A DNA stretch of 48,368 bases from Candidatus Nomurabacteria bacterium (GTDB taxonomy: Bacteria > Patescibacteriota > Minisyncoccia > Phycocordibacterales > UBA2100): the NCBI GenBank assembly GCA_943359395.1, contig CALRHH010000006.1, positions 1 through 48,368 of the forward strand, read 5' to 3'. Below the pieces are notes generated by a model. That model ran no database searches. It saw nothing but the letters and a program-made list of their open reading frames with translations, and had not been told where the DNA came from. Positions 18,965 to 24,322 of the stretch are shown piece by piece (position 1 is the first letter of the stretch; the number at the start of each line of letters is the position of its first letter). The translations under genes and the position numbers were made by a program.

Positions 18965-19465
18965 TCAGCGAACAAAGAGCCAACGTTCTTTGTCGCAAGG
19001 TTGAGGAGGATCTTGGGAAAGCGCAGAGTCAGGGAGGCGGTCCCGGATTCCAAGCCGCTCCGCCCATGCCTCGACGTCGGGCATAGTCGCCTTTGTCACC
19101 GCTCCCATCTGACACTCTTCGAATACACTCATGACCGTGCGTACCGAAGTGATACCGAATAGCTGGATAACAGCTGGAGTTCGCGCGATAAGTTCAAACG
19201 TCATCGCACGAATAATCCCGTTGCCTCGCAAATCTTCATCAACGTAAATTTGCGAGATTTCCTGCCAGAACTCATCATCAGTTTTGCGCCGTGCTATGTG
19301 ACCCTTGATAGGACCGTCCGCAAAGACAAACTTATGCGCTCGCGGATAGACAACTGTACGGCCCGCGAAGAACTGACTCGATAGCCTGCGAGGCGTGAGA
19401 AGGTTGGTATTGTAGACGCCCAATCGCTTCATCCTTTCGAGCAAATCAACCCATTTGGGGTGCAT
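18965..19465 (-). CDS. GNAT-family acetyltransferase-like protein
   Basis: EISQIYVDEDLRGNGI (acetyl-CoA motif A); AGGAG SD. Confidence 0.7.
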   Translation of the reverse strand: MHPKWVDLLERMKRLGVYNTNLLTPRRLSSQFFAGRTVVYPRAHKFVFADGPIKGHIARRKTDDEFWQEISQIYVDEDLRGNGIIRAMTFELIARTPAVIQLFGITSVRTVMSVFEECQMGAVTKATMPDVEAWAERLGIRDRLPDSALSQDPPQPCDKERWLFVR

Positions 19466-19477
19466 CTCCGTTTCTCC

Positions 19478-19957
19478 TTACAGTGGATAGACGTCGGGGA
19501 ATCCGACAACTTCAACCTTGTTGAATCCAGCGAATTGTTCGAGCTTGACCGTCTTCCTGGACTCGAGCGTTAGGACGAAAAGCTTGTCATAGCCGAGATA
19601 GGCGGTCTGAATGAACGTGTCACCGTTGACGTGACAGAGCACGGAGCCGATATCGAGCACAGGAATGATTACCGTGGCCGATATTTTCTCCAGTGCAAGC
19701 TGGTCCTGAATCAGCGCTTGGTTGCTTTCCAGCTCATCGCGGGCAATCTGGCGACCCTTGAACGAGCCGATCTCACGTCCAAGTTTTCCGAATATATACG
19801 GAATATTTTCCTCCTTGAACCGCTGGTTGATCCGAGCGCCGCCACCCGTGCAGATGACGATAAAGTACTCCTGCGCGAGAGGGCGCAGCCACGCCAGAAC
19901 GTCTGGTCGAAGCTCTGCGAGATCGCCCGTGAGTTTGACGAGTGCAGTTTTCCTCAT
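19478..19957 (-). CDS. Truncated amino-acid-kinase (ArgB-like) domain protein
   Basis: LVKLTG, ICTGGGARIN, GREI, HVNGD and DKLFVLT resemble the N-lobe of acetylglutamate kinase; GGAGG SD. Confidence 0.6.
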   Translation of the reverse strand: MRKTALVKLTGDLAELRPDVLAWLRPLAQEYFIVICTGGGARINQRFKEENIPYIFGKLGREIGSFKGRQIARDELESNQALIQDQLALEKISATVIIPVLDIGSVLCHVNGDTFIQTAYLGYDKLFVLTLESRKTVKLEQFAGFNKVEVVGFPDVYPL

Positions 19958-20132
19958 TTTCTCCTCCTGTGAAAGAGCGCATCGCTAGATGCGCCTTTCG
20001 GTGACATCTAAACGAAGAATGACCTCGATTGAGGCCATTTTGGAAGGTTTGTGGGGAGATTACAAACACTCTAAACAGCCTCAAATAAAGCTGCTCGTCG
20101 AGGTGTATGTGTCGTTGGAGTCATGTCCTTAC

Positions 20133-20160
20133 ACCGTACCACACCTATTTTTGCTTGCAA
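20133..20160 (-). promoter_or_regulatory. Putative promoter for the AAK-GNAT operon
   Basis: TTGCAA-N16-TACGGT with an extended -10 TG. Confidence 0.4.
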
Positions 20161-20183
20161 ATCCCGTGTGGATAGCCTTAAAC

Positions 20184-20215
20184 AAAAAAAAACGGGCGCG
20201 CCTCTGGCGCGCCCG
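20184..20215 (-). terminator. Rho-independent terminator after hisG
   Basis: Perfect 10-bp stem CGGGCGCGCC/GGCGCGCCCG followed by T9. Confidence 0.9.
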
Positions 20216-20254
20216 CATCACGTTTCAGTATTCCGCCAGCCCAGACTAGTTACC

Positions 20255-21031
20255 TTAGGGAAGTTGACAGGAAACCTCGAGCCGCGCACAGAGAAGCTCG
20301 GCAAAGGTACGGCGTTCGCCACCATCCCACTTAAGTCGCGAAGCATTCGCTACAAGCACCGTAGAAGAGGTGCAAATTGTTGCGATTTCCCTGAGACCAT
20401 TGACCTTGAGGGTCGTTCCAGTCTCAACGAGCGTTACGCCATAACGGCAGAACCCCTGCTGCACAAGAGCTTCAGCGGATCCTCTCACTATATAGACCGG
20501 GAAATCCATACCGTGCTTTTGCAGAAAGGGCATCGTCTGTACCGGATGCTCCGTGGCAATTCGAGGAACGCCCTCTTTTTCTTCGTCGAAATCCAAAGCA
20601 GCGTCTCTGATTGTGTTCGCATCACCCTCCCTGCCAAAGAACACAATTCGTGTATCTCCGTTTGAGGATCGGCTGATATTCAGCTTGGCAAGAATCACAA
20701 GCTCACGCGCGAACCTCCAGGGGGTATTCTCGGCGACGAACGAATCGACTACTTCCGTTGTGGTGATACCAAAGTCTGCATTGCCTCTGGCAAGCATCAT
20801 CGGCACCAAATCACTGCGACACGAGATTGACCGGGTGAGCGGCGGGATTCCCGAAATCCTACTCTCGATTGAGCGTGGATGATCTTTTTCGATTGATACA
20901 CCTACGCTTTTAAACTTCTTCTCAATCGGGCGCTCAAGACCTTTCGTCGGCACAAGGATGCTATAGGTGACTGGTATATAGGTCACCACCGCCTGGGGCT
21001 TCAAATCAATCAGCATGGTAGTCCGTGTCAT
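20255..21031 (-). CDS. hisG: ATP phosphoribosyltransferase, short form (divergent)
   Basis: VPTKG, ADFGIT, RIATEHP, VRGSAE, LVETGTTLKVNGL and LVAN motifs; no C-terminal regulatory domain. Confidence 0.85.
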   Translation of the reverse strand: MTRTTMLIDLKPQAVVTYIPVTYSILVPTKGLERPIEKKFKSVGVSIEKDHPRSIESRISGIPPLTRSISCRSDLVPMMLARGNADFGITTTEVVDSFVAENTPWRFARELVILAKLNISRSSNGDTRIVFFGREGDANTIRDAALDFDEEKEGVPRIATEHPVQTMPFLQKHGMDFPVYIVRGSAEALVQQGFCRYGVTLVETGTTLKVNGLREIATICTSSTVLVANASRLKWDGGERRTFAELLCARLEVSCQLP

Positions 21032-21095
21032 GGCTTACTCCTGTTGGGTTGTGGAAATCTAGGCTATTTCTGTATTACTCAAAGATCACTCTGCG

Positions 21096-21124
21096 AAAAG
21101 ATAACCCCCTCGCGAGAGGGGGTT
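21096..21124 (-). terminator. Terminator/attenuator hairpin between yerC and hisG
   Basis: Minus strand AACCCCCTC-TCGC-GAGGGGGTT followed by ATCTTTTC. Confidence 0.75.
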
Positions 21125-21152
21125 GGTTTGAAATCTAGAAATGACTATCAAC

Positions 21153-21461
21153 TCAACTCTCTCCCGCTAGAGATGTTGGGAGATGGTGCATGTTGGCAAT
21201 AACGGAGCGATAGCCACCCTCTTTCCCGTTGAGCCACTTTGATACACGAGCGACTGTAGTCGAACTGAGGCCTGTCTTCTTCTCAATTATAGAATAGGGG
21301 ATTTTTTCCGAGAGCATCCTAGCTGCTTGAAAACGCTTGGAGAATTCTTCTATCTCCTCGGGTGTCAGTAAATCAATCAGAAAACGCTGCGCTTCACCTG
21401 CACTTTTTAGTGAAAGGATCGCCTCTATCAAATCCTTCTTTTGCGGCTTTTTCCAGTTCAT
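21153..21461 (-). CDS. YerC/YecD TrpR-like repressor (HisR candidate)
   Basis: FLIDLLTPEEIEEFSKR, TGLSSTTVARVSKWL and GGY motifs; lies upstream of hisG. Confidence 0.9.
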   Translation of the reverse strand: MNWKKPQKKDLIEAILSLKSAGEAQRFLIDLLTPEEIEEFSKRFQAARMLSEKIPYSIIEKKTGLSSTTVARVSKWLNGKEGGYRSVIANMHHLPTSLAGES

Positions 21462-21466
21462 CAATA

Positions 21467-21504
21467 CACTTTATCAGAGTGGAGTGGTTTAGTCAACTAA
21501 AGTA
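21467..21504. promoter_or_regulatory. Tandem HisR-like operators
   Basis: CACTTTATCAGAGTGGAGTG and TGGTTTAGTCAACTAAAGTA (core TTTAGT/ACTAAA) immediately upstream of yerC. Confidence 0.6.
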
Positions 21505-21531
21505 CTCTGTGGACAACCGAAGATCCCTCTC

Positions 21532-21915
21532 CTATCGCGATTCAAGTATCTTCAAAATCTTCTCAAGCTTCTCATCTTCGATGCGGGCGAGACGTACTTG
21601 CAAGTCTTCTATTTCCTTTTTCGCCTGGAGATTTGTCTCGAAATCGGCGTCCGCCTGTAGGCGGTCGCGGTCCGATTGCCTGTTCTGCGACATCATGATG
21701 AGAGTCGAGAGTAAAATTGCTTCGAGACTGACAATCATGGTGAGAAGTCCGTATGGAAATGCCTCTATGGGGAGAACTATCCACAACGTGAACCACACGA
21801 CGTGAATCCAGATGAAGGTCCATGAACCCACGAAAGCAGTCATTCCATCGGCAAGTTTGCTTCCGAGAGTCTTACTCTCCTCATGTTTCTGATGCCACGT
21901 CTTTCTTTTCTCCAT
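21532..21915 (-). CDS. DUF1003 membrane protein
   Basis: FVGSWTF, FPYGLLTMIVSLEAI and MSQNRQ motifs. Confidence 0.9.
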   Translation of the reverse strand: MEKRKTWHQKHEESKTLGSKLADGMTAFVGSWTFIWIHVVWFTLWIVLPIEAFPYGLLTMIVSLEAILLSTLIMMSQNRQSDRDRLQADADFETNLQAKKEIEDLQVRLARIEDEKLEKILKILESR

Positions 21916-21942
21916 ATGGCTTCAGTATACAGCCTCCCCAGG

Positions 21943-22890
21943 TTACTTGTTGACGCTGTGTCCACCAAACTGATTGCGCAGTGCCGAAACGACTTTGCCC
22001 GTAAATGTAGGGTTTTTCTCGGATTCCACGCGAAACTGGAAGGAGCCTTCGATTATTTTTGCTGGGATGTTCATCTCGTGCGCGGTCTTGGCAGTCCATT
22101 CACCTTCTCCTAGATGCCCAACCGTACCTGAAACTTCTTCCAAGTCTTCTCCGTACTGCTCAAATGCTCCCTTGAGCCAGCCGACGAGGCGCGACTCGAT
22201 GACGCTTCCGTGATTATAGATATCTGTGACGCGCGTGAGGTCGAGCTTGTATGGAGATTTTTTCAGTATCTCGAATCCTTCTCCGAGCGCCTGCATCATG
22301 CCGTACTCGATGCCGTTGTGCACCATCTTCACGAAGTGTCCCGCACCTGCACCCGTAAAGAATTGGTAACCATCTTTGAGTGCAAGGTCTCGAAAAAGCG
22401 ATTCGTGTGCCCGGAAGCTCGCCTCATCGCCTCCTATCATGAGGCATCCGCCGTTGCGTGCACCGTTTGGACCGCCGGAGAATCCCACATCAATAAACGT
22501 GATTCCGTGTTCTGTCAATTTGTTCGCTCGTACTTCAGCTTTTTTGAAATACGAATTTCCGCCGTCTATGACCACATCACCTTTTGACAGTAATTCGGTA
22601 AGCCCTCCTTTTCCAAAAAGTACTTCATCCACAGGACTTGGCGCATCTTCTGCTGCTCCCGGCAAGCGAGCCGGGACCATCACCCACACAAGCTTAGGTG
22701 CAGAGAGCCCGTCTACCAGTTCTTCGAGAGAGGCGCGGGTTTGGACACCCTCCGCGGCAAGAGCCCCCGTTGTTTCCGGACTCGGGTCGTAACCGCTCAC
22801 CTTCCATCCCTTCTCGCGGAGCTGCAGAGCGATACCAGCGCCCATTTTACCGAGACCCACAACGCCTATTTCCTTTTTTTCATTTGACAT
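21943..22890 (-). CDS. gnd: 6-phosphogluconate dehydrogenase (decarboxylating, short type)
   Basis: GLGKMG, IDGGNS, SGG, GAGHFVKMVHNGIEY and RNQFGGH motifs. Confidence 0.95.
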   Translation of the reverse strand: MSNEKKEIGVVGLGKMGAGIALQLREKGWKVSGYDPSPETTGALAAEGVQTRASLEELVDGLSAPKLVWVMVPARLPGAAEDAPSPVDEVLFGKGGLTELLSKGDVVIDGGNSYFKKAEVRANKLTEHGITFIDVGFSGGPNGARNGGCLMIGGDEASFRAHESLFRDLALKDGYQFFTGAGAGHFVKMVHNGIEYGMMQALGEGFEILKKSPYKLDLTRVTDIYNHGSVIESRLVGWLKGAFEQYGEDLEEVSGTVGHLGEGEWTAKTAHEMNIPAKIIEGSFQFRVESEKNPTFTGKVVSALRNQFGGHSVNK

Positions 22891-24322
22891 GACGTGCAAT
22901 ATCTAACACCTCTTTTGAATTTGGTTTGTAGTTCTCCAACGGTACCACGCCCTTTTGCCATGCGGCAAGGATGGGATCGGTGAATCTCCACATCTCCCGT
23001 ATCTCCTCGGTTCCGATAAAAAGAGTCTGGTCACCGCGGATGCAGTCGAGAAGGAGCTTAGCGTACTCTTCCACATACGGCACGTGCGCCGACTGCTCTC
23101 GAAGCATGTAGTGAAATTCCCTGCGTTCGGTTGCAAAAGTAAATCCGGTCTTTTTTGCCCAAAATTCAATGAGTATCTCCTCTCGCGGCTCCATGCGGAA
23201 TATGACCTCATTTTTGTGATGAGGGCCACTGGACGGGCAGAGACACGGCATCGGATGCCTGAAAGTGACCACAATCTCCTTGAGCGGCTCGCCCAGACGC
23301 TTCCCGCTTTCCATAACCATCGGCACACCACTCCACTTAGGATTGGACATAGTGGCGCGAACTTTGAAATATGTTTCCGTATCGGAGCTCGGCACTACTC
23401 CTTCGATATCACGGTATCCGTCGTACTGACCGCGGAACGTCGACTTTTTAATATCTTCATCCGAAAGAATATCGAGCGAACCCAAAATTTGTGCACGCCT
23501 TTTTTGTATCGCCGACGCCTCGAAGCTCTCCGGATGCTCCATCGTTATGAGCGCAAGCATTTGCAATAAGTGATTCTGCCCGACATCACGAAGAGCTCCC
23601 ACTCCGTCATAAAAAGGTCCCCGTTTCTCGACGCCAATACTTTCTAACACCTTGATATGGATGCTTTCGATAAGCTTGTTGCCCCACGGCAGCTCGAAGA
23701 GATTGTTGGAGAATCTGAAGGTCAGAATATTTTGCAACATCTCCTTGGCAAGGTAGTGATCGATTCGATAGATTTGTTCTTCCTTGAAGAGCCTCCCCAA
23801 AAGCTCATCTATCTGCTTGGCGGTAGCAGAATTCATACCAAATGGTTTCTCGACAATGACGTGCGTCCAGCCTTGGTCCGGCTCACAGGGGTCCGTGAGG
23901 CCCGAGCGGGAAAGCTCGCCGAGAATGAGTTCGTAGAATTCGGGCGCCACTGAGAGGTAAAAAAGTTTGTTTGAGCAGACACCCCACTCCCGGTCGCAGG
24001 CGTCAAAGGTTTTCTTCAATTCCGTGTAGCTCTCAACATCCCCAAAAGTCCCCCTTTGGAATTTGAACATTGCAAGAAACGGCGCAAGCTCGGCATCGGG
24101 AATCTCCCCTTTGGCATGCTCCTCCAGCACCTCTCTCACGTACGCTTGGAATTGCTCATCTGTCCAACCCCGACGCGAGAAGCCTACTACGCGGAACTGT
24201 CTGGGCAATTCGTTGTGTTTGTAGGAGTAGTAGAGTGCGGGTAAAACCTTCCGCCGCATCAAATCCCCTGTGGCACCGAATGCCGCAAATATTGTGGGGA
24301 TGTTGTTTGACGGAGTAACCAT
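22880..24322 (-). CDS. zwf: Glucose-6-phosphate 1-dehydrogenase
   Basis: GATGDL, EKPFG, RIDHYLAKE and DVGQNH motifs. Confidence 0.97.
   Translation of the reverse strand: MVTPSNNIPTIFAAFGATGDLMRRKVLPALYYSYKHNELPRQFRVVGFSRRGWTDEQFQAYVREVLEEHAKGEIPDAELAPFLAMFKFQRGTFGDVESYTELKKTFDACDREWGVCSNKLFYLSVAPEFYELILGELSRSGLTDPCEPDQGWTHVIVEKPFGMNSATAKQIDELLGRLFKEEQIYRIDHYLAKEMLQNILTFRFSNNLFELPWGNKLIESIHIKVLESIGVEKRGPFYDGVGALRDVGQNHLLQMLALITMEHPESFEASAIQKRRAQILGSLDILSDEDIKKSTFRGQYDGYRDIEGVVPSSDTETYFKVRATMSNPKWSGVPMVMESGKRLGEPLKEIVVTFRHPMPCLCPSSGPHHKNEVIFRMEPREEILIEFWAKKTGFTFATERREFHYMLREQSAHVPYVEEYAKLLLDCIRGDQTLFIGTEEIREMWRFTDPILAAWQKGVVPLENYKPNSKEVLDIARHVK

Follow-up and report, generated by a model that had tools for sequence, protein, structure and literature searches.

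A stretch of DNA from Candidatus Nomurabacteria (48,368 nucleotides (nt), contig CALRHH010000006.1 of assembly GCA_943359395.1; hereafter the window) carries on its minus strand what is probably a ribosome-mediated histidine attenuator, in which the C-terminal tail of a full-length repressor of the YerC/HisR type serves as leader peptide. The element takes in the last codons of a yerC/hisR-like gene and the DNA that follows them ahead of a gene for a HisG-like protein, and has the following parts:

21153 to 21461, minus strand: yerC/hisR-like gene, 102 codons plus stop; an alternative TTG start at 21464 is possible
21183 to 21188, minus strand: two His codons, CAC CAT, the proposed regulatory codons, read from the sequence
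21170 to 21183, minus strand: segment 1, pyrimidine-rich (UCUCCC / UCUCU), which can pair with segment 2 (anti-antiterminator)
21154 to 21167, minus strand: segment 2, GCGGGAGAGAGUUG, encoding A-G-E-S and the first two bases of the stop codon (columns 46-59 of alignment A2, below)
21128 to 21151, minus strand: inner hairpin closing the antiterminator, from the fold; its inner pairs are A2 columns 61-67 with 124-130
21112 to 21125, minus strand: segment 3, CAACCCCCUCUCGC, partner of either segment 2 or segment 4
21094 to 21124, minus strand: intrinsic terminator; stem 21124-21103 with 9 pairs, 6 of them G-C, loop UCGC
21095 to 21197, minus strand: whole attenuator as matched by covariance model R1, 76.7 bits
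20255 to 21031, minus strand: HisG-like gene, the proposed regulated gene, for an orphan HisG-family protein of 258 amino acids (aa)

The yerC-like open reading frame (ORF) matches Pfam Trp_repressor (6.5e-20) and scores 64.6 bits against the NCBIfam model TIGR02531 yecD_yerC, above its cut-off of 42.2. Among solved structures, the HisR chain 3g1c_A matches the window protein with 3.8e-13, and the PDB entries 3frw, 3g1c and 3kor align with it only as far as residue 91-96. On the minus strand the C-terminus reads MHHLPTSLAGES up to the stop and is encoded by ATG CAC CAT CTC CCA ACA TCT CTA GCG GGA GAG AGT TGA, with UCUCCC at 21183-21178, GGGAGA at 21165-21160 and a stop codon (21155-21153) that overlaps segment 2. 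Segments 2 and 3 are complementary at 12 of 14 positions, including one G-U. A preliminary description of this DNA had named the His-His codons, the segment positions and the 12-of-14 pairing, all of which are present where it had placed them; it had also taken segment 3 for the 5' arm of a terminator-like hairpin before the HisG-like gene, in agreement with the terminator scan, which calls a terminator-like hairpin followed by AUCUUUU. The energy of this hairpin is -16.1 kcal/mol, and its U tract, AUCUUUUCG, is interrupted.

When the 111-nt stretch is folded alone, its minimum free energy (MFE) structure consists of the 1:2 hairpin, in which 21183-21178 pair with 21165-21160, and the terminator (-31.8 kcal/mol, z -2.35, equalled by 3 of 200 shuffles). 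Once the terminator 3' arm is removed the 2:3 helix forms (-22.1 kcal/mol, z -3.11, 1 of 200 shuffles), which reproduces both of the alternative folds that had been predicted. The proposed pairing of segments 1 and 2 is thus found in the MFE structure, but segment 1 is longer than had been described and includes the His codons; in relatives it is a longer arm over these codons, and when the 5' half was folded, 84 of 111 sequences had at least half of the His region paired. Taken alone, the single sequence is only suggestive and exceeds chance modestly; the weight of the case rests on the comparative data.

The HisG-like protein was searched for in 150 other genomes of the same GTDB family and matched in 30 of them. 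At 20 of 29 loci the gene immediately upstream, in the same orientation, encodes YerC, and 13 of these 20 YerC proteins carry a C-terminal extension as in the window, LHH(H)(H) followed by 8-10 residues and the stop. In those 13 loci yerC is followed by a terminator whose 5' arm can pair with the final codons of the gene. The other seven YerC proteins end early, at LKRLKQ, with no His run, and their genes adjoin a canonical hisG or have a plain terminator behind them; such a terminator stands before hisG in the short-tail loci L024, L026 and L031. A YerC profile search extended the sample to 80 of 380 metagenome relatives and 80 of 238 loci from named Patescibacteria genomes. Nearly all loci of these two sets share the His tail, mainly in a form that ends in LHHHNSIQSRRGLS before the stop and is followed by a terminator composed of AACCCCCUCC, a loop, GGAGGGGGUU and UUU. 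A strict finder called a terminator in 120 of 140 distinct loci. Without recourse to any alignment, the 33-nt tail window proved the best partner of the terminator 5' arm, when ranked with 70 control windows from the same coding sequence, in 87 of 115 loci. The window's own locus ranks 10 of 70 with the shortened arm used there, and the three short-tail yerC loci with a terminator (L024, L026 and L031) rank 50, 18 and 52 of 70.

Covariation was assessed in alignment A2, which holds 111 distinct regions, four of the 115 candidates (L049, L108, L163 and L167) having been left out as being without tail or complementarity. Helix 2:3 with its inner extension is paired in 81.0% of cells, as against 70.1% in shuffled alignments and 39-51% when one side is slid by 1-3 columns, and it contains 276 double-change cells against 125 in shuffles, a number reached by none of 500 shuffles. 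Four or five pair types occur at several positions of this helix, for example at columns 46:145 (GC 37, CG 26, UA 13, UG 6, AU 3) and 47:144 (CG 39, AU 29, UA 8, GC 5); since such multi-type pairs join coding bases to the loop and top of the terminator, an RNA helix is their only explanation. A conserved A-C mismatch at columns 53:138, unpaired in 75 of the 111 loci, holds the antiterminator weaker than the terminator, which is itself paired in 92.8% of cells. Columns 52, 139 and 158 covary as a triplet (GCG 85, AUA 11), so that a change in column 139 is accompanied by changes in both columns that it pairs with, as is characteristic of helices that exclude each other. The covariation of helices 2:3 and 3:4 that had been anticipated for homologs is therefore borne out.

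G-U pairs are also frequent in helix 2:3 (57:134 UG 40; 59:132 GU 36). In the 830-kb genome of the window the element is the sole full-strength match of model R1, with 76.7 bits on the minus strand (a match by construction, as the window sequence belongs to the R1 seed alignment) and 25.9 bits on the reverse strand. Together, the G-U pairs and the difference between the strands point to an RNA of the minus strand and not to a DNA palindrome.

Conservation of the His codons, expected in the preliminary description as terminal His runs in homologs, is seen in 100 of the 111 loci as two or more consecutive His codons, and in 67 as three or more; HH is found in the fused tails of 116 of 140 distinct loci. 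The third base of these codons is variable (CAT 215, CAC 88 over the 111 loci), and the downstream Arg-Gly-Leu codons AGA GGG UUG barely vary, as judged by eye in sample loci. The His residues thus look to be kept as codons and the remainder of the tail as RNA, and with AGA GGG UUG varying so little, it seems to be the RNA that dictates the sequence of the C-terminal extension. Sample tails inspected by eye showed neither a Phe nor a Leu run. Most commonly 15 nt (range 11-27) lie between the end of the His run and segment 2, and the stop codon lies at -1 nt from the end of segment 2 in 30 loci (the window type), at +4 nt in 69 and at +16 nt at most. This geometry is that expected if a ribosome stalled at the His codons uncovers segment 2 and a ribosome at the stop codon covers it.

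The scaffold is not confined to yerC genes. Searches with model R1, which was built from A2, recovered the element from 55 of 151 family genomes, with 2-5 copies in some, and from 13 of 150 others drawn evenly from across the phylum (E 1e-5). Three HisG-like loci that lack yerC (L019, L021 and L012) have the same RNA, with R1 scores of 78.8, 77.1 and 34.7 bits, and their leaders, MQKISNIIHHHLILVARED, MEVPINNSAHHHSIPIARGS and MQLCARQAQHHTNLLREEFGSVVHA, are short ORFs with their own promoters. Stand-alone His leaders of this kind have about 20 codons (15-25). No YerC similarity was found upstream of them, and in L021 the leader peptide alone matches the YerC tail (residues 72-101, E 0.006). The His run and the switch thus occur, and would work, as a unit independent of the YerC protein. 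These leaders precede the same classes of genes as the fused tails, namely HisG-like, GCS2-like, ATP-grasp-like and phosphoribosyltransferase (PRTase) genes. At six HisG-like loci of relatives (L004, L005, L007, L014, L025 and L032) there is neither a yerC nor an R1 match.

Leader peptides with other amino acids occur on the same scaffold. Fifty further hits in the family (L195-L244), with leader classes sorted by eye, comprise 9 full YerC genes, about 10 stand-alone His leaders, about 10 Phe or aromatic leaders, about 9 Leu/Val/Ile leaders and about 13 unclear cases. The Phe and aromatic leaders, such as one ending in GGTFFFFFASREGVAVSLL and MTGGHTYFFFYFTTPKTERIVL, contain runs like FFFFF, FFFYF or FFWFYF, and those of the Leu/Val/Ile class, such as MHSFATLLLLLRTPAR, contain LLLLL or runs of Val, Leu and Ile. 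The FFFFF leader (GGTFFFFFASREGVAVSLL, L243, same GTDB family) precedes a gene for prephenate dehydratase (PDT 1.4e-41), so the scaffold appears to serve amino-acid-specific attenuation; genes after most other non-His leaders encode proteins of 70-100 aa that belong to no family. The stand-alone aromatic and Leu/Val/Ile leaders form a set of candidate amino-acid attenuators in Patescibacteria. Such homologs are demonstrated here, as are the features of the element, their conservation and their covariation, and the stand-alone His leaders and the Phe leader before prephenate dehydratase give added support to the earlier proposal of an attenuator with a repressor tail as its leader.

Non-His leaders can be seen, for example, at L243:700-960, L201, L209, L221, L231, L235, L237, L230 and L239-L241. 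Between two and five separate copies of the scaffold occur in G001, G002, G003 (genus g2), G020, G060, G091 and G111, and in G001 two copies lie 1.2 kb apart on one contig (L209). At L011:2110-2267 (genus g2) a divergent YerC tail, HHHGKKTIARSGVSLK, is accompanied by a long helix that spans the stop codon and by a hairpin without a U tract (R1 21 bits); this may be a variant that acts otherwise than by intrinsic termination.

Further features lie at the two ends of the transcription unit:

21468 to 21496, minus strand: predicted yerC promoter, -35 TTGACT at 21496-21491, 17-nt spacer, -10 TAAAGT at 21473-21468 with TG ahead of it
21487 to 21503, no strand assigned: operator-like inverted repeat ACTTTAG..CTAAAC over the -35 box, read from the sequence
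20182 to 20216, minus strand: strong terminator ending the yerC / HisG-like unit, 11 pairs, 10 of them G-C, then TTTTTTTTGT

The -10 box of the window yerC is separated from the ATG by 6 nt. Of 142 distinct yerC upstream regions, 115 show exactly this distance between TAAAGT and the ATG and 129 contain both TTGAC and TAAAGT, and a spacing of 6-7 nt between -10 box and ATG recurs in the stand-alone leaders of L021, L012 and L243. The yerC mRNA is probably leaderless, with the ribosome starting together with the polymerase. In 133 of the 142 loci the 60 nt immediately upstream of yerC contain words resembling half-sites, and repeats like ACTTTAG / CTAAAGT lie over the -35 and -10 boxes in yerC genes with and without a His tail, including short-tail loci linked to his operons. 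These repeats are a likely YerC operator, which would fit autorepression by the HisR-type protein.

In the proposed mechanism, transcription would start at the TTGACT-17-TAAAGT promoter and, with an mRNA that is probably leaderless, the first ribosome would load at once and trail the polymerase through the 102 codons. When histidyl transfer RNA (His-tRNA) is scarce this ribosome would stall on the His codons at 21188-21183 and cover segment 1, leaving segment 2 to pair with the newly made segment 3; formation of 2:3 would block the terminator and transcription would continue into the HisG-like gene. When His-tRNA is plentiful, the ribosome would reach the stop codon inside segment 2 and mask that segment, 3:4 would form and transcription would end near 21100. 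Should no ribosome be present, 1:2 and 3:4 would form and transcription would end as well. The promoter bears operator-like repeats, so YerC, with histidine as its co-repressor, probably represses the unit in addition. From the arrangement of these signals in the DNA we infer stalling, termination, a leaderless start and repression.

Several observations weigh against a histidine attenuator of this kind. The rows of A2 were picked for having a terminator, leaving out four of 115 candidates is a small selection that favours the hypothesis, and since the sequences are related the shuffle counts overstate significance. Helix 1:2 is paired in 68.3% of cells as compared to 64.6% in shuffles when a common register is used, and its covariation is weak; own-type and main-type sequences use different registers for this helix. 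In the window itself the His codons number only two and the U tract is broken (UUAUCUUUU); of about 125 loci with the attenuator, 13 retain the structure with runs that are degenerate (HGR, HGH, HRR, HQH, HNH or HSH). The His codons can also pair with UGAUG at the stop site, at 71-73% and no more than in shuffles, and no covariation separates this pairing from codon conservation; the pairing neither accounts for the conservation of the codons nor excludes such an account. Between the hairpin and the HisG-like gene a weak promoter-like site, TTGAGT-15-TAGATT, can be read by eye, but the promoter scan did not call it and called no sigma-70-like promoter in that interval, in line with the preliminary description, for which a separate hisG promoter downstream of the hairpin would have been an objection. 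The sequencing runs that contain this stretch are three DNA runs from one lake-water study, with no RNA run listed.

The remaining objections concern the regulated gene. The genome of the window (830 kb, 97.2% complete) has no match to Histidinol_dh, IGPD or PRA-CH, and His_biosynth is matched below cut-off only; hisD was found in none of five related genomes that bear the attenuator. The HisG-like enzyme that would be induced is thus an orphan, and at most loci other, unannotated genes lie downstream.

Among the alternatives, the one closest to a histidine attenuator accepts the structures and the control of termination by translation of the yerC 3' end, and holds that the signal is not histidine: arrival of the ribosome at the stop would couple downstream transcription, and the His residues would be kept for the protein, in metal binding or at the end of the last helix. 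We regard this as unlikely. It would fit with a first His that is near-invariant followed by others that vary, with the retention of structure where runs are degenerate, and with downstream genes that are mostly unrelated to known histidine metabolism. However, His runs are kept in stand-alone leaders of 15-25 codons without a YerC domain, sister leaders on the same scaffold have Phe, Leu or Val runs, the Phe one before pheA, and the His run is held near 15 nt from segment 2 while the position of the stop shifts. That the hairpin is a plain terminator of yerC, with the HisG-like gene served by its own promoter and the complementarity of segments 2 and 3 functionless, is very unlikely, even though short-tail loci such as L024, L026 and L031 do have a plain terminator before hisG and the weak TTGAGT-15-TAGATT site lies downstream of the hairpin. 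Compensatory changes between coding codons and the arm or loop of the terminator across 111 loci, and the three-way covariation, argue against it, as does the fact that the tail window is the best partner of the arm in 87 of 115 loci but not in those with plain terminators; nor did the scan call a promoter at that site.

It is highly improbable that some other factor switches the structures, whether YerC binding to the RNA, a small molecule as in riboswitches, or a tRNA as in the T-box. A regulator gene does adjoin the element, and a second conserved hairpin and a UGUUCUUUGA box stand after the terminator. The element, though, has no match to any Rfam family at E up to 1, its conserved part keeps the reading frame up to a stop codon -1 to +16 nt from segment 2, and it occurs with leaders of differing amino-acid runs and without yerC. 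The inverted repeat of segments 2 and 3 might finally be taken for a DNA operator of the YerC dimer, as TrpR-family proteins bind palindromes of about 20 base pairs according to PMC9413887. This candidate, to which we give next to no credence, was rejected on account of the G-U pairs, many of which pair on the minus strand only, and of the asymmetry of the model score between strands (76.7 versus 25.9 bits); operator-like repeats of a different sequence are, moreover, present at the yerC promoter.

Returning to the histidine attenuator and its targets, the HisG-like protein of the window matches Pfam HisG (4e-22) and scores 77.5 bits against TIGR00070, barely over the cut-off of 75.75. The preliminary description was thus right in placing a member of the HisG family downstream, but wrong in so far as it implied control of a his operon, since hisD, IGPD, PRA-CH and hisA/F are absent from the genome and the element cannot control a his biosynthetic operon there. 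Judged by gene content, the His-tail attenuator occurs here in histidine auxotrophs and its HisG-like target is an orphan. In relatives whose YerC has a short, His-free tail, by contrast, yerC stands directly before hisG-hisD, with hisD adjoining in 5 of 5 genomes, which links this family to histidine and separates them cleanly from the His-tail genomes, where hisD was found in 0 of 5.

Over all loci, the next gene encodes a GNAT protein with a zinc ribbon in 38 cases, a HisG-like protein in 34, a GCS2-like protein in 21, an ATP-grasp-like protein in 18, and others, in counts that include duplicates between the metagenome and named-genome collections and with annotations that are protein-atlas leads. 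The expected position upstream of hisG therefore holds for the 34 HisG-like loci, but the module, which is widespread among the YerC genes of Patescibacteria, mostly precedes other genes. Compared with Pfam and NCBIfam, the commonest non-HisG downstream genes gave nothing but a sub-threshold GNAT match; the protein-atlas leads are GCS2 for one class and, for another, GSP_synth/TTL, present on 11-18% of members in clusters of lower rank (10-15). As the classes rarely co-occur within 1.5 kb, they do not make up one operon.

His-leader or YerC-tail modules also precede proteins with a type I PRTase domain, at L208:808-1710 and L171:1955-3295; the Pribosyltran match of L171 is below cut-off, and one of the two proteins is fused to a HAD hydrolase. 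PRTase and HisG-like targets together hint at a theme of phosphoribosyl transfer. At L181:2103-3158 a HisRS/HisZ-like gene lies 278 nt downstream of a YerC tail (tRNA-synt_His 2.7e-39; 280 bits against hisS, just below cut-off), and in the window genome the HisRS-like gene sits elsewhere, on contig C9.

A conserved box, (U)G(A/U)UCUUUGA(G/A), stands just before the ribosome-binding site of the regulated gene, whichever gene that is, and occupies 21078-21088 on the minus strand of the window. It recurs in many loci downstream of the terminator and ahead of the next gene, often preceded by a second hairpin that varies in sequence and keeps its structure (GUUUGCC..GGCAAAC, CGGCC..GGCCG). These features might serve as a further terminator, as a site of processing or as a signal for translation.

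Patescibacteria are mostly unable to make amino acids. A wider proposal, which we put forward tentatively and as one possibility, is that they possess a phylum-wide set of leaderless leader-peptide attenuators, built on one scaffold and sensing the charging of tRNAs for His, for Phe and other aromatic amino acids, and for Leu, Val and Ile. The His member would have become fused to the HisR gene, so that the protein would read free histidine and the last codons charged tRNA-His, and its targets (orphan HisG-like, GCS2-like, ATP-grasp-like, GNAT with zinc ribbon, and type I PRTase) might constitute a histidine-starvation response of auxotrophic symbionts, perhaps serving to scavenge or to slow growth by draining ATP and phosphoribosyl pyrophosphate (PRPP).

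If the attenuator is as proposed, one gene would sense a free amino acid as protein and a charged tRNA as mRNA. The arrangement is conserved in more than 100 Patescibacteria genomes, in an uncultivated group with reduced genomes whose gene regulation is almost unknown, and its loci offer a natural set of variants that differ in being fused or free-standing and in having a His, Phe or Leu leader. The arrangement would also flag unannotated enzymes as a histidine-starvation regulon in organisms unable to make histidine, and offer a handle on how a symbiont copes with the nutrient supply of its host.

Leader-peptide attenuation is textbook biology. In E. coli and Salmonella the leader hisL is a dedicated ORF of 16 codons, 7 of them for His, before a complete his operon. 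As is proposed for the window, translation of the His codons takes place immediately before helices 1:2, 2:3 and 3:4, which exclude one another and of which 3:4 is an intrinsic terminator, and a ribosome at the stop masks segment 2. The window differs in that its His codons (2-4 over the loci) are the tail of a 102-codon repressor gene and in that the next gene is an orphan HisG-like one. A search of 19000-23000 against Rfam at E up to 1 gave no match, His_leader (RF00514) included. Another classical E. coli arrangement is the pheL-pheA attenuator, which finds its likeness in the scaffold homolog L243, with an FFFFF leader before prephenate dehydratase; this concerns another amino acid and is a within-family control, distinct from the window element. 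In B. subtilis, pyr attenuators lie between pyrR and pyrP and the PyrR protein sets the switch by binding RNA. They resemble the window in having a terminator/antiterminator switch right after the regulator's own gene, but in the window the switch would be a ribosome on the last codons of the regulator instead of the regulator bound to RNA. A dedicated short leader ORF is not present in the window, where the end of yerC takes its place, and short versions occur in L019, L021 and L012; to our knowledge the leader in other cases has always been a dedicated mini-ORF.

The same holds for the leaders in the available text of Ashniev et al. 2022 (PMC9413887), which describes candidate His attenuators in the Bacillus cereus group, Peptostreptococcaceae and Erysipelotrichales. 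Like the window element, these have consecutive His codons (three to five) followed by terminator and antiterminator hairpins; unlike it, they have separate short leader ORFs and, in the same text, occur in lineages without HisR, whereas the window fuses the attenuator with a HisR-type gene. That text assigns YerC to the HisR family, reports histidine as co-repressor for Ruminococcus gnavus HisR, and contains no occurrence of the word Patescibacteria. The window YerC resembles HisR (YerC/YecD, PDB 3G1C) in passing TIGR02531 and aligning with 3G1C, and in relatives with a his operon the HisR-like gene sits directly before hisG-hisD; it differs by the extra C-terminal extension of about 12 residues. 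The preliminary description had not recognised the arrangement as a described system, and no description of a repressor tail as leader was found in the literature searched, the alignments in the PMC9413887 supplements lying outside that search. What is known is the attenuation mechanism of the his, trp and pheA type; what would be new, on the evidence of these sequences, is the use of the last codons of a full-length regulator gene as the leader.

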